DNA from: Sphingomonadaceae bacterium
Lineage (GTDB): Bacteria > Pseudomonadota > Alphaproteobacteria > Sphingomonadales > Sphingomonadaceae
Length of the DNA: 64,000 nt
Reading direction: 5' to 3'
NCBI GenBank assembly: GCA_029268145.1
Contig: JAJUHA010000010.1
Location: 2,055 to 66,054, forward strand
Position 1 is the first letter of the stretch, and every line of letters begins with the position of its first letter. The notes beneath the pieces are model-generated. The model saw nothing but the letters and a program-made list of their open reading frames with translations. It did no database searches and was not told the origin of the DNA. Of this stretch, positions 2,346-48,668 are shown piece after piece. The translations under genes and the position numbers were made by a program.

Positions 2346-2388
2346 GGCCCGCCGCCCGCCCCGCCGTGACCCTGTGAAGGCCCCGCCC

Positions 2389-6917
<4,529 letters not shown>

Positions 6918-31195: not shown

Positions 31196-31324
31196 GTTGA
31201 TCCCCTTCCGACGCACCTGTCGAACGCAGTGCGACGCCATTTAGCCGACGGGAGTCGACAATGGCAAGCGCGAACAGGGGACAAGCTGTGACACCCGGGC
31301 AACAGGGACAAGTAGTTGTCGAGC

Positions 31325-31789
31325 CTAGCTTCCGGCAAAGACGCCGAGCTCGATCAGGCGTGTCACGATTGCGGCGAGTGCAGCACGCGCCTCGGCATCG
31401 ACCGTCGTTCCGCCGGAAACCGAGGGCGCAGCAGGCACGGCAAGCGCCGGTTTCGGGTCAAGACGCCAGTTCATCCCGTCGAACCTCTGGCACCTTCCGA
31501 TCGCCGCGTTCCACAGCGCAAGGCCCGTGGCGGGCGGGAAGAACCGCCAGCCGGCGGCCGACAGATGGGCAATCTGGCCGTCCCGGCCCGACCATTCGGC
31601 CTCCGCGGGTGTCCCCACCAGCCAGGCCGCGCCAACCGCCGCTCCTGCCGGCGGGCGCAGCAGTCCGGCACTCTCGATCTGGCCGTGCAGAAGGACATCG
31701 ATCCCGGCGATCGCCTCGTTGTGCGTCACATCCTTCTGCCCCTGCCCATGAACCAGCAGGGGCAGGCCGAAACGTTGCGTGCTTTCCAT
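31325..31789 (-). CDS. DUF2793 domain protein (GTA-associated tail-fibre-like)
   Basis: 154 aa. N-terminal RFGLPLLVHGQGQKDVTHNEAIAGIDVLL is the DUF2793 signature. Follows g15, as in many alphaproteobacterial GTA loci. Confidence 0.75.
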   Translation of the reverse strand: MESTQRFGLPLLVHGQGQKDVTHNEAIAGIDVLLHGQIESAGLLRPPAGAAVGAAWLVGTPAEAEWSGRDGQIAHLSAAGWRFFPPATGLALWNAAIGRCQRFDGMNWRLDPKPALAVPAAPSVSGGTTVDAEARAALAAIVTRLIELGVFAGS

Positions 31790-31822
31790 CGCCTGTCTCC
31801 TCGGAAACGCTTCCCAGCCGCG

Positions 31823-33994
31823 TCAGACCGCAAGCATCCGCTCGCCGCTCGAGCGGACGGTGACCGGTCCGTCGCCCTCGGCGATGACCTCGCACCAGAG
31901 CTGGCCGGACCCGGCCGTCCTCGCCTCGGCAACCGCCTCCTCGGGAAGGACGACCTCCTCGCCGAACACCGGCAGCGCGAGCGTCCGTTGCCCCGTCGCG
32001 CCAGTCCACCGCAGCTGGACGCGGTACCATCGCTCCGGCGCCTCGGCAGCGCCGTTCCAGTCGAGGCATGCGCGGTCGCGCCCGGTCCAGGCGAGGGCGA
32101 GGCGATCCGGCCCGGAGGGCAGGATCCGCAGATGGCAGGGCCCGAGCGGCGCCGTCGCCGCCCCCGTCACCCCATGCTCCCGCAGCGTCCCCCCGGCCGG
32201 GTCGCCAGCGCCGGACGCCTGGAACAGCAGCGTCCTTCCGGCCCAGTCCGGCCGCAGGGCAAGCCCCTGGGCTGCCCAGAAAACCACCTCGTGCCAGGGC
32301 GTCCCCGCGAGGTGGAGCCGGGGGGTGGTGCCCAGCCGGCCGCGCAGCAGGCCGGAGAGGATGAGCCTGCCCTCACCGAGCACCGACGCCGACCGGAACT
32401 GGATCAGCTCGTCCCCCACGCACAGGAGACTGGCGCCGTCGAGCACGGCGCGCATGGAACGGGAGAGGATGCGCTCGTCCCCGGCATCGCACCCGATCAC
32501 CAGCCGGTTCGCCTCGTCCCACAGGGTCGAAGGCGCCTCGCCGAGGGGCTCGAGCAGGCTCCCGTTCGCCATGCCCACCCGCAGCGCTCCGAGCGGAGCA
32601 AACATGTCCTCGCCCGCTGCCGCCCACCCCAGGTTCGCGCTGGTCCACCCGTCGGCTGCCAGCGCGAAGATCCGGAGCGCGGGCGGCTCCTCCCCAGACC
32701 AGCCGGTCGGGGCCTCGACGAGGGCAAGCCGGGTCGGCACGAGCCGGTCGGCAGGCGCGGGAAGCACCCGCCCATGGTCGCCGGGCAGATTGGCCTCGCC
32801 ATGCTCGGAAACGGCCTCGCATCTCAGCCGAACCAGACCGGCCTCGACCAGCTTCTCGACCACGCGCCACAGCCGGTGATCGCCCGCCAGGCGAAGCCGG
32901 TCGTTGGGCGCAATCCCCAGCCACTCCCACGAGAGCGCGAGCTCGAGCCGCTCGATGGCAGCGCGGGCATCGAGGAACAGGGTGCGCGCGCTGCGCAGCG
33001 CCTCGGCCGCGCGTGCCGAGAAGGGACCCGAGACGTCGAGCACCCGCGCACCGGCGCGTTCGCCATAGTGCTGCGCGCCGCGCTGGAAGTCCCGTTCGGG
33101 ATCGAGATAGCCGACCCGCGCTCCCGAGACCCGGTCGGCGAGCGCCGCGGTCGTGGGTCGGGGCCCCGCGTCGGGGTCGTCCGCCGGCCTTCGCGCGCCC
33201 AGCTCCTCCTCGGGAATGTTCCACTCCCGGCCCAGCCGCTCGATGCGCACGCCGTCCCGGTCGAGGACGGGTCGCACCGCGAGGAAGTCGCTCAGCGCTT
33301 CCGCGTCCTCGCGCGCCGTCGGTCCCAGCGCCGCATAGCCGCCAAGCCCCGCCGCGGCGATGCAGCGCGCGCCGCCGAGGCCGGACCGGCCCAGATGCTC
33401 GGCGAGCCAGTCCGCCGCCGCGGATCCCTCTTGGTCGGCATGTACCTCGAAGCTGAGCGCGGGGATCCGGTTGCCGAAGGCGGCCAGCGGGAAATCCTCG
33501 AACACGACATGGGCGAGCTGGCGATAGGCCGGGCAGGTGCCAGGCCCTTCGGCGGCAGCGATCAGGGGGTCGAGCGCCTGCTCCGCCACCCCGCGATGGA
33601 CGCGCATGGTGCAGGCGATGCCGAGGGTGCCGTCGGCGTCGCGGATCAGCCGTCCGTCCGCCCAGATGCGCCCGATCCGGGCGATCCGCCGGGACGAGAC
33701 GGCAATGGCAAAGGAGGCCGTGTAGGCCGACCGGTCCGACGTTCCGCCCTTGGCCTCGCCCGATCGGGCGAATGGCAGCGCCCAGATGAGGACCCCGGAC
33801 ACGCGCGAGACGCCATAGACCTCGGGAACCGGGTCGCCATAGGCCGAGGTCGGCGCGCGGAACTCGGGCACCCGGCCGCGGCGGCCGCGCCCGGCCAGCG
33901 CGGCGTCGAGCGCCGAGCCCGCCATCGCCGCCGCGGCCCCGCCCAGCGGCCCGGCCACTGCCTGGCCAATGGTCGAGAAGATGACCGAACCCAT
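31823..33994 (-). CDS. GTA g15-like host-specificity / baseplate protein (short form)
   Basis: 723 aa from ATG 33994, preceded by GAGGAGG. Gly/Ala-rich N-terminus MGSVIFSTIGQAVAGPLGG..., then YGVSRVSGVLIWA and GNRIPALSFEV motifs typical of g15/phage-tail_3 proteins. Confidence 0.75.
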   Translation of the reverse strand: MGSVIFSTIGQAVAGPLGGAAAAMAGSALDAALAGRGRRGRVPEFRAPTSAYGDPVPEVYGVSRVSGVLIWALPFARSGEAKGGTSDRSAYTASFAIAVSSRRIARIGRIWADGRLIRDADGTLGIACTMRVHRGVAEQALDPLIAAAEGPGTCPAYRQLAHVVFEDFPLAAFGNRIPALSFEVHADQEGSAAADWLAEHLGRSGLGGARCIAAAGLGGYAALGPTAREDAEALSDFLAVRPVLDRDGVRIERLGREWNIPEEELGARRPADDPDAGPRPTTAALADRVSGARVGYLDPERDFQRGAQHYGERAGARVLDVSGPFSARAAEALRSARTLFLDARAAIERLELALSWEWLGIAPNDRLRLAGDHRLWRVVEKLVEAGLVRLRCEAVSEHGEANLPGDHGRVLPAPADRLVPTRLALVEAPTGWSGEEPPALRIFALAADGWTSANLGWAAAGEDMFAPLGALRVGMANGSLLEPLGEAPSTLWDEANRLVIGCDAGDERILSRSMRAVLDGASLLCVGDELIQFRSASVLGEGRLILSGLLRGRLGTTPRLHLAGTPWHEVVFWAAQGLALRPDWAGRTLLFQASGAGDPAGGTLREHGVTGAATAPLGPCHLRILPSGPDRLALAWTGRDRACLDWNGAAEAPERWYRVQLRWTGATGQRTLALPVFGEEVVLPEEAVAEARTAGSGQLWCEVIAEGDGPVTVRSSGERMLAV

Positions 33995-34004
33995 TCCCGC
34001 CTCC

Positions 34005-34424
34005 TCAACCCGCCCGCCACACCGAGCGGATCCGCTCGTCCGGGCGCCACGGCCGTTCGACCACCCGGCGCAGCCCGGCATGGGCCTCGATCACGCCGGC
34101 GGCCGTCGCGATGGCGAAATGCAGCTGCCCCGGCGCCGGCTCGCACAGGATGATGTCGCCCGGCTGCCGCCCGGCCGGCGCCACCGCGCGCAGGCCGAGG
34201 CGCCTCAGCCTGACTTCCGCGGCCTCCGGGGCCTGGAACCGCATGCCATGGGTCGGCTCGAACGGAACGCCGAGCCCCGCCCCCTCGAGCGCGAGGAACA
34301 CGAGGCCGACGCAGTCGACGCCCGCCGCCGAACAGCCCTGGGGGCGGAACCGGGTTCCAAGCAGCGCGCGGGCGGCCTCGACGATGCGCTCGCCCGGCCG
34401 CGTCTCCCGCTCAGTCGACACCAT
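34005..34424 (-). CDS. GTA g14-like NlpC/P60 cell-wall peptidase
   Basis: 139 aa. Catalytic Cys context GVDCVGLV and downstream HFAIAT/IEAH. The start overlaps the g13 end. Confidence 0.8.
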   Translation of the reverse strand: MVSTERETRPGERIVEAARALLGTRFRPQGCSAAGVDCVGLVFLALEGAGLGVPFEPTHGMRFQAPEAAEVRLRRLGLRAVAPAGRQPGDIILCEPAPGQLHFAIATAAGVIEAHAGLRRVVERPWRPDERIRSVWRAG

Positions 34425-35241
34425 AGCGCACCAGCGCATCATTGCCCGGAAGGTGCGGCTCGCCGGCAAAGGCCGGTCCGTTCCCGAACCGGCTGCAGCA
34501 GGTCGCGAAGGTCCGGTCGCAGCCCTCCCGGAGCCGCAGCCGCAGCTGCTCTCCGGCCGCGAACTCGGCGCCGATGCCGAGCGTCACGACCGCCCCGTCG
34601 ACGGCGAGCACCGTCCCGTCGAGGCCCGTGAACCGCCCGGAAAGCAGGCGCGCGCGGCCATGCAGGAACCGCGCCCCATCCTCGAGCGGGCTCGCCGCCT
34701 CGACCGCGCGGGGGCCAAGCGCCACGGCATGGATGTCGACGGACCGGCCCGCCATGTCGATTCCGCACACCAGGTCGCCGAGTTCGGCCCGGCAGGTCGG
34801 GGACACTTCGAGCACCCGCCGCCGCGCCAGCGCGGCCAGCGGCGAGAGAAGCTCCATCCGGAACTGCCCGCCGGGCCCCAGCCCCAGGCGGCGGACATCC
34901 CCGATCGTCCCCTCGGTCAGGAAGGTGTCGGGCTGCTCCGGGCGGCGCCAGTCGCAGGCAAAGACCTGCAGCGTCGCGCCCTCCCACCGCCCGGACCGCA
35001 GGTCGTCCTCGCTGATGCGCTCCGAGTCGAGGAACCCCTCGATCGCCATGCTGTCCACGTCGTAGCTGGCCGATGTCAGGATGGCGGAGGGCGTCATGCC
35101 CGCGTTGGGCTCGTAGGTCAGGCCGTCCCGCACCAGCGGGCGGTCGTGGCTGGTGAAGCCGAGCACCAGCCCGTCGGGCCGCATGATCTTCCAGCAGATG
35201 CAGATGCTGCCGAGACCGTCTTGAAACAGCGTCCCGCTCAC
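34411..35241 (-). CDS. GTA g13-like hub protein (DUF2163 / phage BR0599 family)
   Basis: 276 aa from GTG 35241, which overlaps the g12 stop (GTGA). CICWKIMRPDGLVLGFTSHDRPL and the C-terminal CDRTFATCCSRFGN are family hallmarks. Confidence 0.85.
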   Translation of the reverse strand: MSGTLFQDGLGSICICWKIMRPDGLVLGFTSHDRPLVRDGLTYEPNAGMTPSAILTSASYDVDSMAIEGFLDSERISEDDLRSGRWEGATLQVFACDWRRPEQPDTFLTEGTIGDVRRLGLGPGGQFRMELLSPLAALARRRVLEVSPTCRAELGDLVCGIDMAGRSVDIHAVALGPRAVEAASPLEDGARFLHGRARLLSGRFTGLDGTVLAVDGAVVTLGIGAEFAAGEQLRLRLREGCDRTFATCCSRFGNGPAFAGEPHLPGNDALVRYGVD

Positions 35242-35873
35242 GCGAACGCCTCCCGGATCTCGACCAGCGGCACCGAGGGAACCTCGCCCGAGCGGAACCC
35301 CGACATGGAGATCTCCAGCCGGTCGACGGCAAAGCGCACCGGCACGTCGAACCGGTAGCCGCACCGCACCTCGGCCCCGGCGGGCGGCGGCGCGGCGAAG
35401 ACGAGGATTCCGCCGGTCTCGAGCGTCCACCCCGTCTCCTGCACCACGCCGCCCACCGCCACGAGGAACCCGTCCGCAACGGGCCGGGTGATCCGCCGCG
35501 CAAGGCCGGCGAACGCCGGGTCATAGGTCTTCACGACCGGAAAGCGGATCCGCACCCCGTCTCCCACGCCCAGCAGCTGGTCGAACGGGCCGGGGGGCCC
35601 GCCGTCGAGGGCCGAGCTGTTGTCGAGCGGATCCTCGAAGCGGAAGCCGAAGGCCTGGCCGTGGCGGGCCCGGAAGAAGCGGACCAGCGTCCGCAGATCC
35701 TCCTCCGAGCGGACTCCGAGCCCGGCGTCGAACCGCATCAGCGGCTGCTGCCACAGGATGTTCCGCCGCTCGAAGCCGGAGGCGAGCACGGCCACCTCGG
35801 TCAGGAACTCGGGGCCGCCGACGGCGTCGAACCCGATCGCCAGGGGAAAGCGGACGTCGTGAAACGCCTCCAT
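35238..35873 (-). CDS. possible stand-alone g12 (DUF2460) from an internal in-frame start
   Basis: ATG 35873 sits exactly at the canonical g12 N-terminus and is preceded by GAGGAG (…ttcGAGGAGcagtccATG). Confidence 0.45.
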   Translation of the reverse strand: MEAFHDVRFPLAIGFDAVGGPEFLTEVAVLASGFERRNILWQQPLMRFDAGLGVRSEEDLRTLVRFFRARHGQAFGFRFEDPLDNSSALDGGPPGPFDQLLGVGDGVRIRFPVVKTYDPAFAGLARRITRPVADGFLVAVGGVVQETGWTLETGGILVFAAPPPAGAEVRCGYRFDVPVRFAVDRLEISMSGFRSGEVPSVPLVEIREAFA

Positions 35874-37583
35874 GGACTGCTCCTCGAACTGGCCGTGAAC
35901 GACGAGGCCGTCGCGGCGCACCTGCGGCCACGCCCACACGAAGACCTCGGCCGCCCCGCGCCGCGCCGCATCCGCCGCTGCCGCCATGATCCGCGGCCAG
36001 GCCGTGCCGGCATCCTCGGGCCGCAGCACGAACCCCGCGAAATAGTGCATCCCGGCCACCGGATAGCCGAGGCGCGCGGCCACCTCGTCCCAGCCCCGCG
36101 CGCGCCGGTGCTCGTCGCCCGCCGTCACCAGGTCATAGTCCTCGAGCTGGAGGACATCGAAGGCCGGGCGCGCCCAGCCGACGGGCATGTTGGCGCGGAT
36201 GAGCTCGGGGTCGTCGGGGTCGAGCACCTGCGGCGAATAGAACAGCAGATGGCTCCGGAACCCCTCGCCGGCCGCCGCCCTCGCGGCGTCGACCAGCGCG
36301 GCCGTCGAGGCCGCAAGGCGCGCGCCCAGCCAGTCGAGGAAGGCGATCTCCGCCGGGGACTTCGGTCCGCGGATGTCGTCGATCGCCGGCGGCGGGCCGC
36401 CCCGATCGGCCACATGGGCGGCAACCGTCGCCGCGTCGTAGAAGCAGGGGCGATGGTCGGGCCCGACCCACCACCAGGGCTCGCCGACCTGGAACTGCGG
36501 CTGCAGCCCCGCCGCCGCCGCGATCGAGACGAACTCCGCCGCCACCCGGCCGAGCCAGGCCATGGCCTCCGCATGCGTCGGCGACAGCAGCGCCGAGGGC
36601 GGAGTCCATCCGGTCAGCCCGCGCTCGCCATTCGCCTTGCGCTGGACCCAGGCCGAAGGCGCATAGGCGTCGAACAGCTCGTAGGAGAGGGAGAGGATGA
36701 GCGCGTAGCCCTGCGCGGCGAGCGCGGACGCCAGCGCGCGATGCCAGGCCCGCGCCGGCCCGTTCAGCTCGCCTGCGGGCGGGACGGTATAGCGTTCCCC
36801 GTCCCAGGCCAGCGCCGGGTAGTGGCTCATCCCGACATAGTGGGTCACCGTCCCCCGGTAACCGAGCGCCAGCCACTGCTCGACCAGCCGTTCCGGCGCC
36901 TGGTTGTAGCTGTCGTCATAGCCGCTCGCCAGCCGCAGCGGGTGCTCGGGCAGGAAGGCGTCATTGACCGGGATCGACGCATGCGCCCCCGTCACCTCGA
37001 TGTTCCGCAGCTCGACCCAGGTCTCGACCGGCGCCGGCAGCGGGCCCTCCGCGTCGGCGTGCCCGTCGGGCATCAGCGAGATGAACATCCGGTCGATGTC
37101 GTGCGGATGCACCGGGTCGGCCTCGGCCGGCAGCAGGAACCCGCCTTCGAGCGCGCCGAGATCGAGCCGGATGCGCGCCTCGGTCGGCGTCCCCTCGGCA
37201 TAGTTCCACAGCCGGACATACCAGGTCCGCGGGTTCCCGGCCGCATCCCGCCCCTCGATGGTGAGCGTCGGGCCATTGACGGCGTCGAGCGGGCGCAGGC
37301 CCGGCCCCGCCACCCAGTCGAAGGCGAGCGTGCAGCCGGCATAGTCGCGGATGGTGCGGTAGGCGCACCGCGGGTGGGACCAGCGGTCCTCGGATTCCCA
37401 GATGAGCCCGGCCAGGTCCCGGCGGGCGAGGAAGGCAAGGTCCACCCGGAGCAGCCGCGGCGCCGGGTTGGTGAGGGCGGCCATCATCGGCCGCGGGAAA
37501 TCGACCGTCCACAGCCGCGGCGCGAACCGCCTCACCGCGTCCTGGCGAACCGGGTCGCCCGGCCCTGCGAAATGGTGCAGCAC
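35238..37583 (-). CDS. 781-aa fusion: unknown 570-aa N-terminal module plus GTA g12 distal tail protein (DUF2460)
   Basis: Uninterrupted ORF. GTG 37583 lies 4 nt after the tape-measure stop. The last 211 aa (MEAFHDVRFPLAIGFDAVGGPEF...SGFERRN...) are a complete DUF2460/g12. The N-terminal part has no counterpart in reference g12. Confidence 0.7.
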   Translation of the reverse strand: MLHHFAGPGDPVRQDAVRRFAPRLWTVDFPRPMMAALTNPAPRLLRVDLAFLARRDLAGLIWESEDRWSHPRCAYRTIRDYAGCTLAFDWVAGPGLRPLDAVNGPTLTIEGRDAAGNPRTWYVRLWNYAEGTPTEARIRLDLGALEGGFLLPAEADPVHPHDIDRMFISLMPDGHADAEGPLPAPVETWVELRNIEVTGAHASIPVNDAFLPEHPLRLASGYDDSYNQAPERLVEQWLALGYRGTVTHYVGMSHYPALAWDGERYTVPPAGELNGPARAWHRALASALAAQGYALILSLSYELFDAYAPSAWVQRKANGERGLTGWTPPSALLSPTHAEAMAWLGRVAAEFVSIAAAAGLQPQFQVGEPWWWVGPDHRPCFYDAATVAAHVADRGGPPPAIDDIRGPKSPAEIAFLDWLGARLAASTAALVDAARAAAGEGFRSHLLFYSPQVLDPDDPELIRANMPVGWARPAFDVLQLEDYDLVTAGDEHRRARGWDEVAARLGYPVAGMHYFAGFVLRPEDAGTAWPRIMAAAADAARRGAAEVFVWAWPQVRRDGLVVHGQFEEQSMEAFHDVRFPLAIGFDAVGGPEFLTEVAVLASGFERRNILWQQPLMRFDAGLGVRSEEDLRTLVRFFRARHGQAFGFRFEDPLDNSSALDGGPPGPFDQLLGVGDGVRIRFPVVKTYDPAFAGLARRITRPVADGFLVAVGGVVQETGWTLETGGILVFAAPPPAGAEVRCGYRFDVPVRFAVDRLEISMSGFRSGEVPSVPLVEIREAFA

Positions 37584-37587
37584 GGTC

Positions 37588-38148
37588 TCACGGCTCCGCG
37601 CGCTGGAGCGCGCGCCTGACGGCGCGTGCCACCTGGTTTCCGGTCTGCGCCATGAAGGCCGGGCGCGTGCGCGTCGCCGGGCCGAGGTTCACGGCCAGGT
37701 TCACGACCTGCATGCCCCGCCCGCGGCCGGGCTCCACCCGCCCGCTCGCCGTCGGCACGAACAGCTCGGGCCCCTGCTCGCCCACCACATAGGCCCGCCC
37801 GGGCGCGACCGGCCCGCCGGTCGCGCGGCCGGGCAGCCCCGCGGCACCGGCAAGCCCGGCAAGCCCGGCGAGGAGGCCGCCGGGCCCTCCCGCCCCGCCG
37901 AACTCGATCCTGAGCGCAGCCGCCGCAATCTCGCCCAGCGCCCGTGCGGCCACCCGGGCGAGATCCTCGAACTCCACCCGTCCGCTCCGCGCGGCCCTGG
38001 CCAGCGCCGACTCGATCCCGCGCCCGGCCGCCTCGGCCCCGGCACCAAGGCCGGCCTCGAGCGACTGGCGCATCTCGGCGATGTCGCGCTGGAACGCCTC
38101 CATGTCGGCGCGCACGGCAACCGAAACCTCGTCAAACCCGTCAGCCAT
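37588..38148 (-). CDS. GTA g11-like short tail tape measure protein
   Basis: 186 aa, Ala/Gly-rich helical. The C-terminal YVVGEQGPELFVP motif is typical of tape-measure proteins. Position between chaperones and g12. Confidence 0.75.
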   Translation of the reverse strand: MADGFDEVSVAVRADMEAFQRDIAEMRQSLEAGLGAGAEAAGRGIESALARAARSGRVEFEDLARVAARALGEIAAAALRIEFGGAGGPGGLLAGLAGLAGAAGLPGRATGGPVAPGRAYVVGEQGPELFVPTASGRVEPGRGRGMQVVNLAVNLGPATRTRPAFMAQTGNQVARAVRRALQRAEP

Positions 38149-38335
38149 CGGGAAACTCCCGCATCAGTCGCTCGAGATCGGCTGCGACACCGACGGCCGG
38201 GGTGGTCCCGAACCGTCCCTCGATCGCCAGCCGCAGCTCGGCGAGCGTCGCGTTCCAGAAGGTGTCGGGCGTCCATCCGAGCACGCCCGTCGCAACCCGC
38301 GCGGCCAGCCGCGCGAAGACGAGATAGCTCGTCAT
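38141..38335 (-). CDS. GTA g10.1-like small tail assembly protein
   Basis: 64 aa; ATG overlaps the g10 stop (ATGA). LGWTPDTFWNATLAEL motif. Confidence 0.65.
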   Translation of the reverse strand: MTSYLVFARLAARVATGVLGWTPDTFWNATLAELRLAIEGRFGTTPAVGVAADLERLMREFPDG

Positions 38336-38652
38336 GTGCCGGTGAAGATCGCAGCGAGCAGCGCCCGGTAGGCCGCGAGCACCGGCTGCAGCCCGGCCCT
38401 CGCCAGCGCCTCCTCGAACGCGGCGCGCTCCATCGCCTCGCCATCCGCCCGCCGGCAGTGCCAGAACAGCGCGGCGGCATCGGCCAGTCGGACATCGCCT
38501 TGCGCGGCCCGCTCGATGAGCTGCGGCAGGCTGCCAAGCTCGGCTTCGGCGTGCACCAGCGCAGCGAAGCTGGGGCGCAGGCACAGGGCGCGGTCGCCCA
38601 GCCGCAGCGCCACCTCGCCGCGCACCGGGTTGGCCTCGCCGGCGGCAGTCAC
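38332..38652 (-). CDS. GTA g10-like tail assembly chaperone (gene transfer agent family protein)
   Basis: 106 aa; ANPVRGEVALRLGDRALCLRPSFAALVHAEAELG pattern. The start overlaps the g9 stop. Confidence 0.75.
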   Translation of the reverse strand: MTAAGEANPVRGEVALRLGDRALCLRPSFAALVHAEAELGSLPQLIERAAQGDVRLADAAALFWHCRRADGEAMERAAFEEALARAGLQPVLAAYRALLAAIFTGT

Positions 38653-39056
38653 AGCGCCTCCACCGGGCCCGAGCTCTCGAGCGCCAGGGTGTAGGTCCGC
38701 TCGCCATTGAAGTCCCCGGCATAGTCGAGCCGTGTCACCTGGAAGGTCCCGCGCAGCCGCTCGCCGCCCTCGAAGCTCACCTCATAGCGGTCGAGCGCGC
38801 CCGAAAGCGCGCGCGACTTCAGCTGCATTTCCGCCGCCGACCCGGTGAACACGCCCGCCCCCGAGATCGAGACCGAGCGCACCCCGGCCCCGCCGAGCAG
38901 ATCCCGCCACCCTGCCGAGCCCTTGTGCGTCACCACCACCTGCTGGGCCGCAATGCTGAGCTGGGTCGTCCGCAGGCCGGCGACGGTGCGATACTGCTCC
39001 GGCTCGCCATTGTCCGACAGCTTCAGAAGAAACGCGGCGCCGCTCTCGACTGCCAT
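38649..39056 (-). CDS. GTA g9-like major tail (tube) protein, TP901-1 family
   Basis: 135 aa; FLLKLSDNG...YRTVAGLRTT...ISGAGVF... pattern. Confidence 0.8.
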   Translation of the reverse strand: MAVESGAAFLLKLSDNGEPEQYRTVAGLRTTQLSIAAQQVVVTHKGSAGWRDLLGGAGVRSVSISGAGVFTGSAAEMQLKSRALSGALDRYEVSFEGGERLRGTFQVTRLDYAGDFNGERTYTLALESSGPVEAL

Positions 39057-39060
39057 GGCC

Positions 39061-39456
39061 TCACTCCTTGATGGTTCGCGCGATGAATTCGAGCCGGCCC
39101 TCGGTCCAGCTCTTCGGGTTGCGCCGCACCTGGGCGCGCGCCAGCCGCAGGCCGACGATCCGCAGCCCCTCGCCCGCGCGGGGCATGCCGAGCACGGCCG
39201 CCTCGATGCGCGCCATCAGCGCCTTGGCGCCTGCCATGCCGTCGCGGCCGAGCCAGGCGGAGATGGTGAGCCGATGCTCGTCGCCCCCGCCATCCTTCCA
39301 CCGCCACGGCACCATCGCGTCGGGCCCCAGCCCGATGAAGGGCGGGCGCGCGTCCGCCGGCGGGCCGTCGTGCACGGCCACGCCCGCCGCGGCGAGCTCC
39401 GGATCGGCCGCAAGCGCCGCCACGATCAGGCGCTGCAGCCTCAGGCTTGCGTCCAT
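39061..39456 (-). CDS. GTA g8-like tail terminator (DUF3168)
   Basis: 131 aa from ATG 39456 (MDASLRLQRLIVAALAADPEL...). Assigned by position and pattern. Confidence 0.7.
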   Translation of the reverse strand: MDASLRLQRLIVAALAADPELAAAGVAVHDGPPADARPPFIGLGPDAMVPWRWKDGGGDEHRLTISAWLGRDGMAGAKALMARIEAAVLGMPRAGEGLRIVGLRLARAQVRRNPKSWTEGRLEFIARTIKE

Positions 39457-39484
39457 GTCCCGTCTCCCGCGTGAAGGGGCGCGG

Positions 39485-39820
39485 TCAGGCGCCGAACTCC
39501 TCGGCGACGACCGAAAGCCGGTCCGGAAGCTGCGGATCCCGGTCGATCCCGGTGACCCGCAGGTCGAGCCCACGCCAGCTCAGGCGCATCCCCAGCGCCA
39601 CCTCGATCCCCGCGCGCATCAGCACCCGCCACCGCCGCGCCGTCACGCGCGTGTCGGCCACCACGGCCGACATGTTGAGCGTGTCGACGGGGCGCATCTC
39701 GGCCCAGTGCTCGCCTACGGTCCGCCAGATCTCGTGCGAGCCGCCGGCGCCATCGGGCGCATGCACCCGCTCCTCCACACGCACCCGCTGCTTCAGCCGC
39801 CCGGCAATTTCCCCGCTCAT
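39485..39820 (-). CDS. GTA g7-like head-tail adaptor / head closure protein
   Basis: 111 aa; LKQRVRVEERV...WAEMRPV... is typical of the phage head-closure (SPP1 gp16-like) family. Confidence 0.75.
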   Translation of the reverse strand: MSGEIAGRLKQRVRVEERVHAPDGAGGSHEIWRTVGEHWAEMRPVDTLNMSAVVADTRVTARRWRVLMRAGIEVALGMRLSWRGLDLRVTGIDRDPQLPDRLSVVAEEFGA

Positions 39821-39838: not shown

Positions 39839-40372
39839 TCAGTTGAGGCGCAGCCGGCGCCAGGGCGCCAGCAGCTGACGCACCGCCCCGGGCAGCCCCG
39901 CATCCTCGGCGGCGTCGCGGTGGGCGTGCAGATGTCCGGCCGCGCGCATCACCGCCAGCCGCAGCTCCTCGGGAAGCCCGTTCCAGTCCGCCGCCATGCC
40001 GGCGCGGTAGGTGACGCGCACTTCGCCCTCCACGCCGCGCAGCAGCTGGATCTCGGCCGCGCCGTCGCGCCGCTGCACCAGCCGCCAGTCGGCCTCGGCC
40101 AGCGGCGCCGGCTCCCCGCCCGGCGGCGTCAGGGTCACCGCGCTCACGGCCGCCACCGGCCCGGCCGTCAGCCGCAGCGTCTCGCCCGGGTCGGCGAACC
40201 GCTCGGTTGCGGTCCGCTCGAGGAGAAGCCGGCCCAGCCAGGTCTCGACCTGGCTCGCCGCGGCGCGGATGAGCCCGGCAAGAAGCGCATCCTCGGCGTC
40301 GGTCTCGATCCGAAGATAGGTCCGCAGTTCCACGATCGGCACCGGCAGGACCGCCGTCTCCAGCGTCAGCAT
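39839..40372 (-). CDS. GTA g6-like head-tail connector (phage gp6-like)
   Basis: 177 aa from ATG 40372 (MLTLETAVLPVPIVELRTYLRIETDAEDALLAGLIRAA...). This is only the C-terminal part of track ORF 39839-43162. The start overlaps the upstream stop (TGATG). Confidence 0.8.
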   Translation of the reverse strand: MLTLETAVLPVPIVELRTYLRIETDAEDALLAGLIRAAASQVETWLGRLLLERTATERFADPGETLRLTAGPVAAVSAVTLTPPGGEPAPLAEADWRLVQRRDGAAEIQLLRGVEGEVRVTYRAGMAADWNGLPEELRLAVMRAAGHLHAHRDAAEDAGLPGAVRQLLAPWRRLRLN

Positions 40373-40647
40373 CAGCGTTGCTCCACCCGGAAGACGAGCG
40401 AACGCTCGTCGATCTGGCCATCGGAAAGGGTGATCCGGTTGCGGACGGCATAGACGCGCCCCGCCGTCCCGCCGGACAGCCAGACGACCGTCTCGGCCCC
40501 GTCGATCGCCGATGTCTCGATGGCCGGGGCGCCCGCGCCCTCCGGCTCGACCGACCAGCTGCTGGCCACCAGCACGAGCCCGCCGGCCAGCCGCTCGGAC
40601 CAGTCGAAGCGATAGTCCAGCCGGGCGTCCGGATCCTTCAGGAACAT
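40372..40647 (-). CDS. small phage-like protein (possible fibre/tail adaptor-like), inserted module gene 3
   Basis: 91 aa from ATG 40647, preceded by GGGAGAG (the track starts at GTG 40662). MFLKDPDARLDYRFDWS...VWLSGGTAGRVYAVRNRITLSDG...ERSL. Confidence 0.6.
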   Translation of the reverse strand: MFLKDPDARLDYRFDWSERLAGGLVLVASSWSVEPEGAGAPAIETSAIDGAETVVWLSGGTAGRVYAVRNRITLSDGQIDERSLVFRVEQR

Positions 40648-40683
40648 CTCGGTCTCTCCCACTTCGAAAGGCGCCGGCAGCGG

Positions 40684-41052
40684 TCAGACCGGGTCGCCGA
40701 TCTCGACGCTCCAGCTCGCGATGCTGACGGTCCCGCCGGGCACCAGCGCCTGGTCCGGGCAGGTCGTGACATAGAGGAGCGCGGAGTTCGCCGCCGACAG
40801 CAGCGCGACGTGCGAGGCGGTGCCGGCCGCCAGAACCGCAAGCCCGCTCTTTGCGGCAACCGCCACCTTCCGGCCCGAGACGTCGCCGGGCCCGATGGAG
40901 AAGTCCGCCGGCGCGACCGTCGCCTCGGCCAGCCGTCCGGCCATCGCCTCGGCATAGGTCGCCGGCTGGGCGGCCAGCGCCACAATGCGGTCGGCCGATG
41001 CCACCACGGCAAGCGCGGCATCGAGAACGGTCGGGGAAACCCACTTGGCCAT
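40684..41052 (-). CDS. hypothetical protein, inserted module gene 2
   Basis: 122 aa; ATG 41052 is preceded by GGAGAGGA. No family recognised. Confidence 0.6.
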   Translation of the reverse strand: MAKWVSPTVLDAALAVVASADRIVALAAQPATYAEAMAGRLAEATVAPADFSIGPGDVSGRKVAVAAKSGLAVLAAGTASHVALLSAANSALLYVTTCPDQALVPGGTVSIASWSVEIGDPV

Positions 41053-41073
41053 GATGTCCTCTCCATGCTTGGG

Positions 41074-41094
41074 CCGGCGCCGCAGGGGCGCCGG
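41074..41094 (-). terminator. GC hairpin CCGGCGCC-gcagg-GGCGCCGG immediately after the 957-aa gene
   Basis: 8-bp perfect stem read from the sequence. No U-tract. Confidence 0.35.
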
Positions 41095-41109
41095 GTCGGG
41101 CGCGGCGTC

Positions 41110-43983
41110 TCAGTCCAGCGGCGGCCGCGCCCGGCGCTCCTCCGCCGGCACGCGGCGGGTCCGGGGAGCTGCCCCGGTCGGGCTCCCGCCGGGCGTGAAC
41201 CCCAGGGCGGCGGCAAGGCCGCGCACGGCCTGCCGCGCGGCATCCGCCACCACCGAGAGCAGCAGCCCCACGCCGGCGGCGCCTGCACCATGGGCATGGC
41301 GGGCCCCCGCCGGGTCGAGCATGGCCGCCGGCGGCGCAACCGGCTCGCCCTCGAGCGCGCCTGCCGCCCAGCTCGCGCCGGTCCTCAGGTTGCCGGCCAG
41401 GTCGGCGTCGATCTGGGCCGTGGTCGCGCGATCGAGCAGCGGGCTCCCCGCCATGGGCCGATAGTTGCCGAAGCCGGCACCGCCGTCCGCCACTGCGGCA
41501 GGCGCAGTGAAGCCGGGCCAGGCGATGCCCTCTGGCGTCGGAGTGCCGAGGTTCGGGTAGGGCGAGACGATGGACCTCAGACCCCAGTTCTCCGGCACGC
41601 AGCCGTTGAGCGAGCCGATGTAGGTCCGCCAGCCCTCGACATTGCCCTCGTTGAGGTGGCCGAAGTAGATCTGCCAGCCCTGCACCTGGTGGCCGCGATA
41701 GCCCCGGGTCGAGGCCGGTTCGCCCATCGCGGCCCGCGCCGTCGAAGTGTTCGAATCGAACATGGCCTCGTGCTTCGAGACCAGCTTGTCGAAATAGTTG
41801 TTGGCCACCCGGCAGTGCGCGTAGCTGTTGAACCGCGTGAAGCTGCCCGCCTGGTCGATCGGGTTCGGCTGGTTGTAGCAGTGGTTCGCCCGGTCGCCGA
41901 CGATGGTGTTGTGCTCGATGATGAGGCCGCGCACGTCGAGCTCGGGGTTGTTGATCTCGCCAATGGCATAGGCCGGAGCCGAGCCGCCGCCCGACTTCTC
42001 CAGGATGTTCCCGATGACATTCTGCCGAACGATCTTCAGCCGCCCGTCTGCCGCCGCCGTGTAGGTCACGGGGAAGAAGGCCCAGCCGGATACGGCATGC
42101 GTCCCCCGGCAGTCGTTGAACCACCAGTGGATGTCGTGGCGGCTCTCCTCGGTCGAGCCCGCAGGGATCGCGGGGTTGCCAAGCGGAAGCAGGGTCGTCC
42201 CTGCGCCCGTCTTGACGCAGTTGACCACCGTCGGGCTCGCGAAGCCCTTGCGGCTCCGCACCGACCGCAGCAGCAGGGCGGCGCCGGATGCGCTGTGCCA
42301 CCCGGTCGAGACGAGATCCTCCTCGATGTTGGTCGCGAAGATCCGCATCGTGCTGGCCGCCGGCGGTGACGAGCCGAACCCGGAAAGCGGGCTCCCGGGG
42401 TTGTCGTCCTCGATGCGGACCCCCTGGTCGAACCAGAGGATCCCGGAGCTCCCGGCGACCGGGAAGGCGACGGCGCGCATCCGGAAGCGGATTCCCGACA
42501 TCCGCACGCGCCACGCGCCGCCGAAACTGTGCGAGCCCGAGGCCGCGCCGACGAGATGGGTGCGGTCGATGCCCTCGCCCCGCACGTTGAGATAGGTTTC
42601 GGTCGAGGTCGCCCCCGAAAGGACGGAGAGCGTGCTCCAGGCATGCGCCACGGGCGTCGCCCCGCCCAGCAGGAAGATCTCGAACCCGTCGTGCGCGCTG
42701 GTCTTGGTCGCGGTGAAGCCATTGGCATTGTCGAGCCCGCGCGCCAGCCGGGTCAGCATCGCGCCGGCCACGGTCAGGTTGGCGCAGCGGTCGGCAACCG
42801 GCACCGCCAGCGCCCTGGCGCGCGCCTCCTCGGGGGTGTTGCCAAGGCCCACCACCTGCTCGGCGACGTTCCGCGACGGGGCGAAGCTGTTGTCGGTCCG
42901 CCCGCCCGCCGGGTCCACCACCACGCAGGCGTAGCGGTAATAGGTCGAGGGCGCATGCCCGAGCGGGTTGGTGCCACCGCCCGGGTTCGCCTGCGTCGTG
43001 TAGCCGTAGCGCGCCCCCGTCCGGTCGAGCGCCAGCATGAGCGGCTGCTCGGCCTCGATGCGGACCGACTGCTGCCCGGCATTGGCGCCCGGGTGCAGCA
43101 GCGCGGGCGAGGCCGTGGCCGGGTCGTTCGCGCTGCTGGTGTGGCGCGGCGCCCCGAACCACGGATAGACAGTCGCGTGCAGCGCGATGAGCCCGTCGGT
43201 CAGATAGGTCCCCGGCGCGCCCTCCACCTCGAAGCTGACGCTGCCCGTCCAGCAGCGCACGCTGTCGCCGTAGCGGGTCGAGGTGCCGATGGAGAGCCAG
43301 GATGCCACCGAGCGATTGGTGCCGTCGGTCGCGATGATGCGGATGCCCGCCACGCCCGAGGCGCCCTCGGGAAGCACATGGGAAGCCAGCATGTCCACCG
43401 TGGTGCTGTTCGCAGGCGCGCCCGGCGTGCCGCGGATGGCCTCGTAGGGCACGGTGATCCAGCGGAACGACGGCACTTCCAGCGCCACGGCCGAACTGTT
43501 GGTCGCGCTCACCACCTGGTCGGCGGCGGCGTCGGGCCGCCAGCCCGCCCTGAACAGCACGGTGACCGTCTCGCCCGGCGCCACCGGCTTGTGTAGCATC
43601 AGGCGGATGCTGCGCTGGCCGCCGCCCTCGTCCACTTCGCCGAGCGGGCGGTTGAGCGGCCGGAAGGTCGGCGCATCAGCAAAGGGGCCGGGCTGGAGCG
43701 AGGTCGGCTGGCCCGGCGCCCAGTCCGGGTAGCGGTCGGGGCGCACCTCGTGCGCCACCACCTCACGCGAGCGGGAAGCCCCGACAGCCTGCGCGCCCGA
43801 GCGGCTGAAGCCCGGGCCCGACACCGTCGCCACCACCCGCGCGCCCGCCTCGGTCTGGGTCTCCGGGCCGCCGGCACCGGCGAACAGGGCGAAGTCGGCC
43901 CGCACCGAGGGCGCGGCAGCAGCGTAGGTGACCCTGAGCGTCCAGCCGTCCGCCTCCACCACCGCTGCTGAGACGACCGTCAT
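41110..43983 (-). CDS. 957-aa right-handed parallel beta-helix (spike/depolymerase-like) protein, inserted module gene 1
   Basis: ATG 43983 starts a long ORF on the cluster strand. Beta-helix-like rungs (IIEHNTIVGDRANHCYN, CRVANNYFD). The family-typical C-terminal motif YRPMAGSPLLDRATTAQIDADLAGNLR...AAGALE is followed by an Ala/Gly-rich tail. Confidence 0.7.
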   Translation of the reverse strand: MTVVSAAVVEADGWTLRVTYAAAAPSVRADFALFAGAGGPETQTEAGARVVATVSGPGFSRSGAQAVGASRSREVVAHEVRPDRYPDWAPGQPTSLQPGPFADAPTFRPLNRPLGEVDEGGGQRSIRLMLHKPVAPGETVTVLFRAGWRPDAAADQVVSATNSSAVALEVPSFRWITVPYEAIRGTPGAPANSTTVDMLASHVLPEGASGVAGIRIIATDGTNRSVASWLSIGTSTRYGDSVRCWTGSVSFEVEGAPGTYLTDGLIALHATVYPWFGAPRHTSSANDPATASPALLHPGANAGQQSVRIEAEQPLMLALDRTGARYGYTTQANPGGGTNPLGHAPSTYYRYACVVVDPAGGRTDNSFAPSRNVAEQVVGLGNTPEEARARALAVPVADRCANLTVAGAMLTRLARGLDNANGFTATKTSAHDGFEIFLLGGATPVAHAWSTLSVLSGATSTETYLNVRGEGIDRTHLVGAASGSHSFGGAWRVRMSGIRFRMRAVAFPVAGSSGILWFDQGVRIEDDNPGSPLSGFGSSPPAASTMRIFATNIEEDLVSTGWHSASGAALLLRSVRSRKGFASPTVVNCVKTGAGTTLLPLGNPAIPAGSTEESRHDIHWWFNDCRGTHAVSGWAFFPVTYTAAADGRLKIVRQNVIGNILEKSGGGSAPAYAIGEINNPELDVRGLIIEHNTIVGDRANHCYNQPNPIDQAGSFTRFNSYAHCRVANNYFDKLVSKHEAMFDSNTSTARAAMGEPASTRGYRGHQVQGWQIYFGHLNEGNVEGWRTYIGSLNGCVPENWGLRSIVSPYPNLGTPTPEGIAWPGFTAPAAVADGGAGFGNYRPMAGSPLLDRATTAQIDADLAGNLRTGASWAAGALEGEPVAPPAAMLDPAGARHAHGAGAAGVGLLLSVVADAARQAVRGLAAALGFTPGGSPTGAAPRTRRVPAEERRARPPLD

Positions 43984-44061: not shown

Positions 44062-45234
44062 TCAGCTTGCCGAGAAGCGCATCAGCTTGATCGCCTCGCT
44101 GTTCACCAGCGCCCCGCCCACGCGCCGCGTCGCGTAGAAGTGGACGAACGGCTTGTTCGAGAAGGGGTCGCGCAGCACTGCGGTCTCGGTCCGCTCGGCG
44201 ATCGTGTAGGCCGAGCCGAACTGGCCGAAGGCGATCGCCAGCGCGTTGGCGGCAATGTCGGGCATCGCGTCGGCCTCAATCACCGGGTAGCCGAGCAGCG
44301 TCGCCGGCTGGTCGGCGGCAAGCGCCGGCTGCCAGATGAACTGGCCGGCCGAGTCCTTGAACTTGCGGATGACAGACAGCGTGTTGCTGTTCATCACCCA
44401 CACCGCGCCCTGGCGATAGGGGGTGCGCAGCGCATGGACGAGGTCGATCAGCCGGTCGGCGGGGTTCGCCGCCGGGAAGGCGCCCGCCGCCCCCGAGGGC
44501 AGATACTGCACCGTCCCGAACGGCCGGGCCTGGTCGGCGGTGGTCGCGACCGGATAGGTCAGGAAGCCCTTGGGCTGGTCGGTCCCGCTCCCGGTCACGA
44601 AGGCGATGCTCTCGGCCCGGGCGAAGTCGAGCGCGATCTCGTTGGCCAGCCAGGTCTCGATGTCGAACATCGCATCGTCGAGCATCGCCTGGGTCGCGGC
44701 CGGGTTGGCATAGAGTTCGCCCATCGGGATCGCGACTTCCTGGAAGGTCGGAGTCCCCGTCTCCGGCCGCCCCGCCGCCTCGCTCACCCAGCCGCTGGCG
44801 AAGCCGCCCGTCGAAACCAGACGGCGATAGCTGCTGCTCCCCACCTTCACCACATTGGCAACCGTCCGGATGGGGGAGATCGACCGCAGGGTCGATTCGA
44901 TCAGCTGGTCGAGCTCGCGCGGCACGGCGACGCCGCCGTCGCCGGGCACCGTGCCCTGGAAGCGCTTCAGCTCGAAGCCGCCCTCGATCCCCTTGCGCAG
45001 ATACAGGTCGGCGAAGGCCGCGCGCTCCCCGTCGCGGGCGGCTGCCGCGCCGGCAAGCGCCGGGCGGGCCCGCTCCACCGCCTGGCGCCGCAGGGCCGCC
45101 AGCTCGGACTTGATCGCCTCGACCGAGGCCCGCATCGTCGCCAGCTCGGCCGGGTCGGTCTCGCTCGTCACATAGGCAGGCGCGCTCGCCATGTCCGCCG
45201 GCGCAACCGCGTCGGCCTTGGTCTCGTAGGTCAT
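44062..45234 (-). CDS. GTA g5-like major capsid protein (HK97 fold)
   Basis: 390 aa from ATG 45234 (MTYETKADA...). N-terminal coiled delta-like region, then VPRELDQLIESTLRSISPIR, FQEVAIPMGELYA and PYRQGAVWVMN, all typical of HK97-family capsids. Confidence 0.9.
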   Translation of the reverse strand: MTYETKADAVAPADMASAPAYVTSETDPAELATMRASVEAIKSELAALRRQAVERARPALAGAAAARDGERAAFADLYLRKGIEGGFELKRFQGTVPGDGGVAVPRELDQLIESTLRSISPIRTVANVVKVGSSSYRRLVSTGGFASGWVSEAAGRPETGTPTFQEVAIPMGELYANPAATQAMLDDAMFDIETWLANEIALDFARAESIAFVTGSGTDQPKGFLTYPVATTADQARPFGTVQYLPSGAAGAFPAANPADRLIDLVHALRTPYRQGAVWVMNSNTLSVIRKFKDSAGQFIWQPALAADQPATLLGYPVIEADAMPDIAANALAIAFGQFGSAYTIAERTETAVLRDPFSNKPFVHFYATRRVGGALVNSEAIKLMRFSAS

Positions 45235-45259
45235 CGCTTCGTCTCCATGCTGCAGGGAA

Positions 45260-45275
45260 GGGGGCGCGCGCCCCC
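45260..45275 (-). promoter_or_regulatory. perfect 16-bp GC palindrome GGGGGCGCGCGCCCCC between protease and capsid genes
   Basis: Read directly in the 55-nt g4-g5 spacer. Confidence 0.35.
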
Positions 45276-45289
45276 GGGTGCCACCGCCC

Positions 45290-45694
45290 TCAGGGCAGGA
45301 TGGCGGTGACACGCGCGTGCGCGTGCATCGGCAGGGTCACCACCGAACATTCGAGAAGCTCGAGCTTCAGGAGCTCGCGCCCGCCGCCCGGAACCGGGCG
45401 GGCCTGCTTCACCCGGTAGCCGAACGAGAGCCCGTCCACCGCGCCGGCGCGCAGAAGCGCCAGCGCATCGCGGCCGTCGCGGCAATCCGGGCTGATCCGC
45501 GCCTCCATCCGGAGGCCCGCGGCATCCTCGACCAGGCTCAGCACCCGGCCGATCGGCCGCTCCACGTCATGCTGCCACAGGAGGGGCACGTCGGCCCGGC
45601 TGCCGGCGAAGGCGCCGCGGCGCACCAGGTCGCCCGACCGGTCGGGCGTGTCGAACCGGCTCACGTAGCCGCGCACCAGCACGCCGTCGCTCAT
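45290..45694 (-). CDS. GTA g4-like prohead protease (HK97/S78 family)
   Basis: 134 aa from ATG 45694, which overlaps the portal stop (ATGA). GYVSRFDTPDRSGDLVRRGAF...WQHD...GLSFGY...ECSVVTLP. Confidence 0.8.
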   Translation of the reverse strand: MSDGVLVRGYVSRFDTPDRSGDLVRRGAFAGSRADVPLLWQHDVERPIGRVLSLVEDAAGLRMEARISPDCRDGRDALALLRAGAVDGLSFGYRVKQARPVPGGGRELLKLELLECSVVTLPMHAHARVTAILP

Positions 45695-48534: not shown

Positions 48535-48668
48535 CGGCTGACATCCGCGGCGGCGACAGGAGCCCCGGCCGGTCCGGATTCCAGACGGGCCAGGGCGTTC
48601 GGGAGGGGAGGCGCTCCAGACCCAATTCCGGAGCGTGGCCGAATCTCTATACCATACCGTCACGCTTG

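Follow-up and report, generated by a model that had tools for sequence, protein, structure and literature searches.

The window considered here is a 64,000-nucleotide stretch of contig JAJUHA010000010.1, from a Sphingomonadaceae bacterium, and it carries a head-tail gene cluster of the type known from the gene transfer agent (GTA) RcGTA. In this cluster the gene g12, which encodes the distal tail protein (Dit), forms the last part of an open reading frame (ORF) of 781 aa that begins with GTG, 4 nt after the stop of the ORF in the g11 position. A sequence-only reading of this DNA had proposed that a 570-residue module is fused in frame to the N-terminus of the Dit, and that an internal start preceded by a Shine-Dalgarno (SD) sequence could give rise to nested long and short isoforms. 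What it stated at the level of the letters about the ORF, the junction ATG, the GAGGAG and the motifs of the module all holds, as do its coordinates, except that the strand has to be corrected to minus. The parts of the long g12 are as follows.

35238..37583, minus strand: long g12, consisting of NCTSP module, acidic linker and Dit (Pfam and NCBIfam matches; an architecture common to >110 full-length orthologues)
36972..37535, minus strand: NCTSP_N beta-sandwich, residues 17-204 (Pfam PF23844, 2.3e-82; all-beta in the AlphaFold2 (AF2) model, with a predicted local distance difference test score (pLDDT) >90)
35907..36950, minus strand: TIM-barrel_NCTSP, residues 212-559 (Pfam PF23845, 3.2e-144)
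35874..35906, minus strand: acidic inter-domain linker, residues 560-570, of variable length and predicted to be disordered, holding the putative internal ribosome-binding site
35880..35885, minus strand: putative internal SD, GAGGAG, 6 nt upstream of the ATG at 35873
35871..35873, minus strand: internal start codon ATG (M571), the first Dit codon and the first codon of the proposed short isoform
35238..35873, minus strand: Dit (DUF2460/TIGR02217 by Pfam and NCBIfam), residues 571-781, the proposed 211-aa short isoform if M571 is used

At 72% GC, the window contains very long spurious frames, such as those at 31316-34153 (plus strand, 945 aa, opposite g15) and 39839-43162 (minus strand, 1107 aa), and the length of an ORF alone is therefore no evidence of a gene here. 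The long g12 has a GC content at third codon positions (GC3) of 0.92 and three Pfam domains, NCTSP_N, TIM-barrel_NCTSP and DUF2460, with E-values down to 3.2e-144, and is therefore genuinely coding, not a frame opened by chance in GC-rich DNA. Its AF2 model, built on 111 orthologues (mean pLDDT 91.4, pTM 0.86), places a beta-sandwich, an alpha/beta barrel, a disordered linker (pLDDT <50 at residues 566-571) and a Dit fold one after the other.

The last 211 residues (571-781) are a complete Dit of the DUF2460/TIGR02217 type, as had been recognized from the sequence. Pfam DUF2460 covers residues 575-777 (2.8e-71; 239.7 bits against a cut-off of 30.4), and the NCBIfam model TIGR02217, "phage distal tail protein, Rcc01695 family", is matched at 205.2 bits (cut-off 136.65). 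Using phmmer, residues 573-777 retrieved the RcGTA Dit Rcc01695 (6tba, 7.6e-48) and the Dit of roseophage R4C (8gtc, 1.8e-35); a Foldseek comparison with the latter (8gtc_G) gave a target-normalised template modelling (TM) score of 0.78 at 41% identity. In the window and in 50+ related loci the Dit lies between the tape measure and the baseplate hub. A stand-alone Dit of ~210 aa is not what the locus holds, since the ORF is 781 aa long and a 211-aa product would arise only through the inferred internal start.

The module in front of the Dit, which the sequence-only reading had called unknown, belongs to known families. PF23844 and PF23845 are matched at 275.3 and 480.7 bits (cut-off 27), nearly over their full length (positions 1-188 of 191 for NCTSP_N and 1-347 of 348 for TIM-barrel_NCTSP), and the N-domain precedes the TIM barrel as it does in NCTSP families. 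The module is homologous to gp64 and gp65 of coliphage N4, both with solved structures: in a phmmer search of PDB sequences, residues 272-561 matched gp64 (chain 9lc0_M, 2.3e-50) and, more weakly, the module matched gp65, the "non-contractile tail sheath". The tail tube of N4 is surrounded by a six-fold sheath with gp65 as its major and gp64 as its minor subunit, and gp65 is the receptor-binding protein that binds NfrA (PMC13434306).

A (beta/alpha)8 glycosidase-like fold had been guessed for the module, with the suggestion that the structure of residues 1-570 be predicted, and the guess proved apt: AF2 gave a beta-sandwich followed by an alpha/beta barrel (pLDDT >90 over residues 212-560). 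When compared to the PDB with Foldseek, N4 gp64 ranked first (E 5e-25 to 9yf5_SA and 1e-22 to 9lc0_M, target-normalised TM 0.64-0.66), with gp65 also matched; next came the R4C Dit, and then a series of glycoside hydrolase (GH) barrels and relatives at E 5e-11 to 1e-6, namely a CBM22-GH10 xylanase, beta-amylases (GH14), GH31 and the PgaB C-terminal domain. The three motifs singled out in the sequence-only reading, SLSYELFD, QVGEPWWW and LQLEDYD, hold E302 (36678-36680, minus strand), E368 of GEPWWW (36480-36482, minus strand) and E481/D482 of LQLEDYD (36138-36143, minus strand), which are invariant in the 111 orthologues and also kept in N4 gp64. In the AF2 model, E368 stands right after the strand formed by residues 363-367, E481 ends the strand 477-481, and E302 lies just past the strand 294-300; the GEP of GEPWWW is comparable to the NEP motif, and a catalytic role of these carboxylates is putative. 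The module is thus a beta-sandwich plus a glycoside-hydrolase-like TIM barrel, homologous to N4 gp64.

The fusion is widespread and in frame. A protein search returned 4900 matches, of which the best 120 are nearly all ~780 aa long with the same three Pfam domains and 56-83% identity, and >110 full-length orthologues in Sphingomonadales GTA clusters carry the fusion. The carriers include Thermaurantiacus, Sandaracinobacter, Sandarakinorhabdus, Polymorphobacter and other Sphingomonadaceae, as well as Pacificimonas flava and Allosphingosinicella, with Thermaurantiacus tibetensis, Sandaracinobacter, Polymorphobacter fuscus and Pacificimonas flava represented by cultured isolates. Brucella and Ochrobactrum have a stand-alone g12 that starts MEAFHDVRFPL, identical to the long g12 from M571 onward. 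That the fusion is real and conserved is, in our judgement, close to certain. It is not the unusual solution for a GTA that it had been taken for, as it is standard in a large set of Sphingomonadales clusters. The sequence-only reading would have given up its proposal had the fusion turned out to be common and already annotated; this is so for the fusion itself, whose orthologues stand in databases as "DUF2460 domain-containing protein" or "phage distal tail protein, Rcc01695 family", but not for the internal start.

In the window, codon 571 is ATG (35873-35871), preceded at the canonical spacing that had been reported by GAGGAG (35885-35880) and a 6-nt spacer, CAGTCC, and the predicted anti-SD duplex energy of -7.6 kcal/mol is comparable to that of genuine starts of the same cluster (tube -8.1, g10 -9.3, g13 -10.3 kcal/mol). 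In an alignment of 119 proteins, the M571 column holds M in 59, V in 48 and L in 8, with no I, K or R, and the linker that runs from WAWPQVARDGF to FHDV is hypervariable, in length as well as in sequence, while being acidic and rich in glycine throughout the orthologues. More divergent Dit fusions, among representatives clustered at 50% identity, also keep M, V or L at the junction after an acidic stretch.

The junction DNA was sampled without conditioning on the start codon, by means of a pattern consisting of WAWPQ, a gap and FHDV, which matched 56 viral-contig loci from IMG/VR and 40 metagenome loci. All 56 of the former and 35 of the latter are in-frame fusions without a stop; the other five (L074, L084, L095, L097 and L100) are chance matches, being out of frame or without a downstream Dit. 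These loci yielded 75 distinct junction DNAs with 65 distinct linker peptides, and the spacer between the flanking motifs is 54, 57, 60, 63, 66, 69 or 72 nt, always a multiple of 3. A stop or a separate gene at the junction, for which the sequence-only reading had advised looking in orthologous loci, was found in none of the 75.

A start codon is present at every one of the 75 junctions (ATG in 49, GTG in 26), mostly three residues before the Phe of FHDV and two residues before it in 6 of the 58 junctions of the first set. In 72/75, the codon is preceded at 5-8 nt by a GGAG or GAGG core, and the mean anti-SD energy at the junction is -8.65 kcal/mol (n=75), as against a column mean of -3.25; this mean equals in strength the genuine tube, g10 and g13 starts of the cluster. 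Within its own gene, the median junction falls in the top 2.8% of positions (first set, 51 non-redundant junctions). GGA makes up 38% of the Gly codons in the seven codons upstream of the start versus 8% gene-wide, and lineages differ in the reading register in which the SD is encoded. Around the start, a window of 60 nt belongs to the ~4% least-folded of the gene, and the GC content of the junction is 58.6% compared to 68.1% for the whole gene.

To place these values, 770 alignment columns of the 51-sequence set were scanned, and only four had NTG in at least 85% of sequences. Three of them are structural Mets without an SD (mean -0.2 to -1.7 kcal/mol, against -8.75 at the junction), so that the junction is the only internal column to join a conserved NTG with a strong SD. 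The annotated start columns of the long ORF also pair NTG (60-72%, blurred by the alignment) with a strong SD. The V-G-E-P codons of GEPWWW (36474-36485, minus strand; columns 407-409) carry an SD-like GGAG in all orthologues (mean -9.4 kcal/mol) with no start codon after it, and an SD-like sequence alone can therefore be a by-product of protein constraint. Taken together, the 75 junctions keep a start codon, an SD, weak structure and an open frame, which lends strong comparative support to the proposed nesting of a short isoform in a long one; at the level of sequence, the comparison demonstrates that the open frame, needed for a long product, and a complete internal initiation region, suited to a short one, are both evidently under purifying selection.

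The same NCTSP module is found in other settings. A full HMMER scan of 1.84 billion representatives found it in 581 clusters, in proteins of 570-2950 aa in which it may be N-terminal, in the middle or C-terminal. Phage genomes with the module include rV5-like phages, phapecoctaviruses, N4-like phages and the Acinetobacter siphophage Loki, and its annotations there vary (lateral tail fibre, baseplate exopolysaccharide (EPS) depolymerase, non-contractile sheath). In Loki, the module forms the N-terminus of a 900-aa protein that follows the Dit (LOKI_17; L071, 5968-8670), and in the representatives P0153, P0167, P0171, P0182, P0208, P0219, P0243 and P0247 it is fused N-terminally to a g13-like hub. 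Because it is found in so many protein architectures and phage types, the module appears to be a mobile cassette that serves generally as a peripheral appendage of baseplates or tails. The fold, the invariant carboxylates and the tail-fibre- and depolymerase-type relatives together point to binding or cleavage of a recipient surface polysaccharide, and we lean towards such a glycan-directed function. A nested start was also considered for the hub fusions and LOKI_17 and was rejected, as neither a junction Met nor an SD is consistent in the representative hub-fusion proteins or in LOKI_17. A 5.4-kb unannotated "Bacteriophage sp." sequence from human faecal viromes, MT840053.1, has an NCTSP module and, directly after it, a Dit at 1875-3891 (45-54% identity); although deposited as a phage, this sequence is probably a piece of a GTA cluster of the Sphingomonadales type.

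A companion change is seen in g15, the gene for the megatron protein. The g15 of the window matches the NCBIfam model NF048004 (GTA_megatron) at 277.8 bits, against a cut-off of 800, in two stretches of which the best lies on model positions 1-205; the Pfam scan gave no match to GTA_TIM (PF13547), and the full ~1300-aa megatron architecture is absent. In all 29 fusion loci where it could be measured, g15 is 706-815 aa long. In Brucella pituitosa, where g12 is unfused, g15 is 1268 aa long with GTA_TIM at 407-703 (3e-134), and the RcGTA megatron has 1304 aa with a peripheral domain of ~515 aa at residues 230-744 (PMC7296036). Across the clusters examined, an NCTSP module on g12 and GTA_TIM on g15 are mutually exclusive. 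A difference in the lengths of g12 and g15 was remarked on in the Methods of Kogay et al., 2020 (PMC7360931), and we found no interpretation of this anomaly in the literature. The possibility that the module is the megatron peripheral domain itself, relocated to g12, was rejected, as no sequence homology was detected: BLASTP gave nothing, hhalign gave a probability of 1.4%, and neither hidden Markov model matches the other protein. The anticorrelation suggests instead that the Dit-borne module may have replaced the megatron peripheral domain in function.

We consider it probable, from the comparison of genes, that both a long and a short Dit are made. Ribosomes would start at two sites and produce a ~85-kDa long Dit with the module and a ~23-kDa plain Dit, which would co-assemble in the hexameric ring. 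The long subunits would then expose, at the baseplate periphery, modules that bind or cleave glycans, and these modules could take over the role of the lost megatron peripheral domain in recognizing or penetrating the capsule or exopolysaccharide of the recipient. The short Dit would be needed if not every position of the ring, plausibly three of six, accepts an N-terminal appendage. The RcGTA Dit is a hexamer in which Ala2, at the N-terminus, sits where the Dit meets the hub and the megatron, and its odd and even subunits differ in conformation, contacting the trimeric hub and the trimeric megatron respectively (PMC7296036); both features suggest that only some positions may tolerate an appendage. 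The lack of a conserved nested start in the fusions to the trimeric hub fits this logic of ring positions. A ring of three long and three short subunits would present three modules where RcGTA has three megatron peripheral domains. As a whole, a Sphingomonadales GTA g12 fused to a glycosidase-like cassette, with two isoforms that co-assemble and a module that takes over a megatron role, is the explanation we favour and hold to be likely. Co-assembly in a 3+3 ring is a tentative part of it, drawn by analogy, and equally speculative is the fuller version in which a nested gene would yield an alternating 3+3 hetero-hexamer that resolves the mismatch between a six-fold tail and a three-fold baseplate, with three glycosidase modules in place of the lost megatron domain.

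Several points weigh against this explanation. No GH family was matched at E <0.01 in the Pfam or NCBIfam scans of the long g12, and no report of enzymatic activity for N4 gp64 was found in the literature. Since NCTSP and GTA_TIM show no homology, it is by their anticorrelation alone that a replacement is suggested. The purine runs that resemble an SD cannot be fully separated from the acidic, glycine-rich composition of the linker, the junctions are phylogenetically related to one another, and patterns anchored on WAWPQ and FHDV sample part of the clade. The exclusive use of GTG for Val at the junction might have been taken as decisive, and a control weakened it: 2/64 Val-rich columns are also 100% GTG, and columns alternating between M and V are biased to GTG by the mutational path. 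The weight therefore falls on the combined features and not on GTG alone. No characterized Sphingomonadales GTA particle was found in the literature; both Dit products are predictions from gene sequences, and the co-assembly and its 3+3 stoichiometry are extrapolated from the RcGTA structure.

One alternative is that only the 781-aa protein is made and that all six Dits carry the module, the junction ATG or GTG and its purines being a by-product: the Met would be left from an ancestral stand-alone g12, and the GAG and GGA codons would encode a flexible acidic linker or an SD-like pause for co-translational folding. Such a by-product would account for a linker that is acidic and glycine-rich in every orthologue, for the change from M to V, which comes naturally via GTG, and for a frame that is always open. 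Yet the linker varies freely (65 peptides, 7 lengths) around a start that, at 75 junctions, is never I, T, K, R or a non-GTG Val, and a relic Met would have decayed at 56% protein identity. The 4-5-fold enrichment of the rare GGA codon, the fixed spacing from SD to start and the minimum of mRNA structure exactly at the junction also speak for initiation, and in hub fusions of this module a junction Met is not consistently kept. We regard production of the full-length protein alone as improbable.

It is likewise improbable, in our view, that, with both products made, the tail is built of the short Dit alone, the long one being minor or non-structural, for example an intermediate of assembly or a depolymerase that is free or only loosely bound. 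The SD of the internal start matches or exceeds in strength that of the long-ORF start (mean -8.65 versus about -6 to -9.6 kcal/mol) and the N-terminus of the RcGTA Dit sits at a buried interface, both as this alternative would have it; the covalent, in-frame link to a complete Dit in all orthologues would nonetheless serve no purpose if the long form's Dit were never built into the ring, and the same clusters have lost the megatron peripheral domain, which suggests that something takes its structural place at the baseplate. An assembly or sequencing artefact (a lost stop or a frameshift), conceivable a priori in what is apparently a metagenome-type contig, is ruled out for practical purposes by the same architecture in >110 independent assemblies, cultured isolates included, with 75/75 junctions in frame.

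We therefore return to two isoforms of a fused Dit as the preferred explanation, and to the cluster in which it is set. The genes found around the long g12, from the terminase onward, are listed below.

47128-48672, minus strand: terminase
45691-46824, minus strand: portal
frame ending at 45290, minus strand: prohead protease
44062-45312, minus strand: capsid
40372-40662, minus strand: adaptor-like gene
39485-39820, minus strand: head completion
39061-39573, minus strand: tail completion
38649-39056, minus strand: tube
38332-38652, minus strand: g10
37588..38148, minus strand: tape-measure-like gene in the g11 position, 186 aa (no Pfam family; 45-72% identity to its positional counterparts in 50+ related loci)
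34411..35241, minus strand: g13 baseplate hub (TIGR02218, 9.4e-50; Pfam PF09931 and PF09356)
34005..34469, minus strand: NlpC/P60-like peptidase in the g14 position (weak Pfam NLPC_P60 match, below the gathering cut-off; syntenic in related loci)
31823..34081, minus strand: short megatron g15, 752 aa (only Phage-tail_3 and Rcc01698_C found)

The set is collinear with an RcGTA-type head-tail cluster (terminase, portal, protease, capsid, adaptor, tube, g10, g11 and g12-g15), and the order g11, g12, g13 (TIGR02218), g14, g15 is the same in the window and in 50+ related loci. The prohead protease, at first suspected to be missing between portal and capsid, was found in the frame ending at 45290. 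The GTG start of g13 at 35241 overlaps the stop of g12 (GTGA) and has a strong SD, GGGAGG, upstream (-10.3 kcal/mol). Ten flanking ORFs were scanned; eight match families, seven of these being host-type, two match nothing, and no integrase or replication protein is among the ten. The cluster is of siphovirus/GTA type, with a tube protein, tape measure, Dit and hub, and a scan of its genes turned up none like gp65; a sheath role of the N4 gp64-gp65 type does not apply here. One of the eight flanking ORFs with a family match, directly upstream of the terminase, is a gene of the DUF6456 family, that of the GafA-type GTA activator (48669-49172, minus strand), and this regulator is seemingly linked to the head-tail cluster in this window. 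Because of its collinear genes, flanks without integrase or replication proteins and GafA-type neighbour, the cluster is well supported by its gene content as the RcGTA-type GTA of a Sphingomonadales bacterium.

Between the capsid and adaptor-like genes, a position that is empty in RcGTA, lies an ORF of 957 aa (41110-43983, minus strand; GC3 0.92). It has no match in Pfam, PHROGs or a PDB sequence search and is conserved at 26-37% identity in about 25 related Sphingomonadales GTA loci; it looks like a lineage-specific, uncharacterized GTA structural gene, possibly for a head or neck spike.

In Alphaproteobacteria, GTAs are leading candidates for the exchange of genes, and RcGTA is the only one with a known baseplate structure. 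Across a whole order the baseplate appears to have been rebuilt, with the TIM-barrel domain of the megatron absent and an unrelated, N4-type glycosidase-like module on the Dit. If both isoforms are made, the locus would show cleanly, in bacteria, how isoforms can encode the stoichiometry of a symmetric virus-like machine and would offer a handle for re-targeting GTAs, and annotation pipelines that call a single 781-aa "DUF2460 protein" would miss a product. If the 3+3 arrangement also holds, a receptor-processing domain would have been re-housed on another baseplate protein, with its stoichiometry set by an internal ribosome-binding site. Cultured carriers are available for a direct test of the claim, namely Polymorphobacter fuscus, Sandaracinobacter, Pacificimonas flava and Thermaurantiacus tibetensis.

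In the literature searched, neither a fused DUF2460 Dit nor an internal start in a Dit or a GTA was found described; databases already hold the fusion itself, and what appears to be undescribed is the conserved nested start, along with its occurrence beside a megatron that lacks the peripheral domain. The nearest relatives of the Dit part are RcGTA g12 (Rcc01695; PDB 6TBA/6TEB/6TEH) and the R4C Dit (8GTC), which resemble the C-terminal 211 aa and, in RcGTA-type clusters, take the same gene position. RcGTA g12, however, is a stand-alone protein of ~210 aa, whereas the gene described here has a 570-aa N-terminal module and apparently two start sites. The module is likened to N4 gp64/gp65 (PDB 9LC0, 9YF4/5) by ~290 residues that align to gp64 in Foldseek at 31-32% identity and by the shared motifs GEPWWW and (L/I)EDYD; N4 has these domains on separate proteins, which build the sheath of a podovirus tail tube, whereas here they are tethered to a siphovirus-type Dit, with neither a gp65-like partner nor the setting of a sheath. 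LOKI_17 and the other hub-like fusions have the same NCTSP cassette, N-terminal on a core baseplate protein. The GTA_TIM of the RcGTA megatron (PF13547, residues 230-744) is also a TIM-barrel-type domain at the periphery of the same kind of baseplate, but it is an internal domain of a trimeric protein, while the NCTSP module, which has no detectable homology to it, is an N-terminal appendage of the hexameric Dit.

The nearest precedent among Dits is that of the evolved Dits of Lactobacillus and Lactococcus siphophages, in which a core baseplate protein is likewise decorated with glycan-recognition modules. There, small carbohydrate-binding modules are inserted within the Dit fold and every subunit is decorated, whereas the long g12 has a large enzyme-like N-terminal module and a nested start that could supply undecorated subunits. 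In-frame internal initiation that gives co-assembling long and short isoforms is known from ClpB 95/80, IF2 alpha/beta, CheA L/S and T7 gp4A/4B. Decorated and plain subunits are combined in the SPP1 tail tube (gp17.1 and gp17.1*), where a +1 frameshift adds a C-terminal extension; in the Sphingomonadales g12, the corresponding means would be an SD-led internal start, and the extension is N-terminal.

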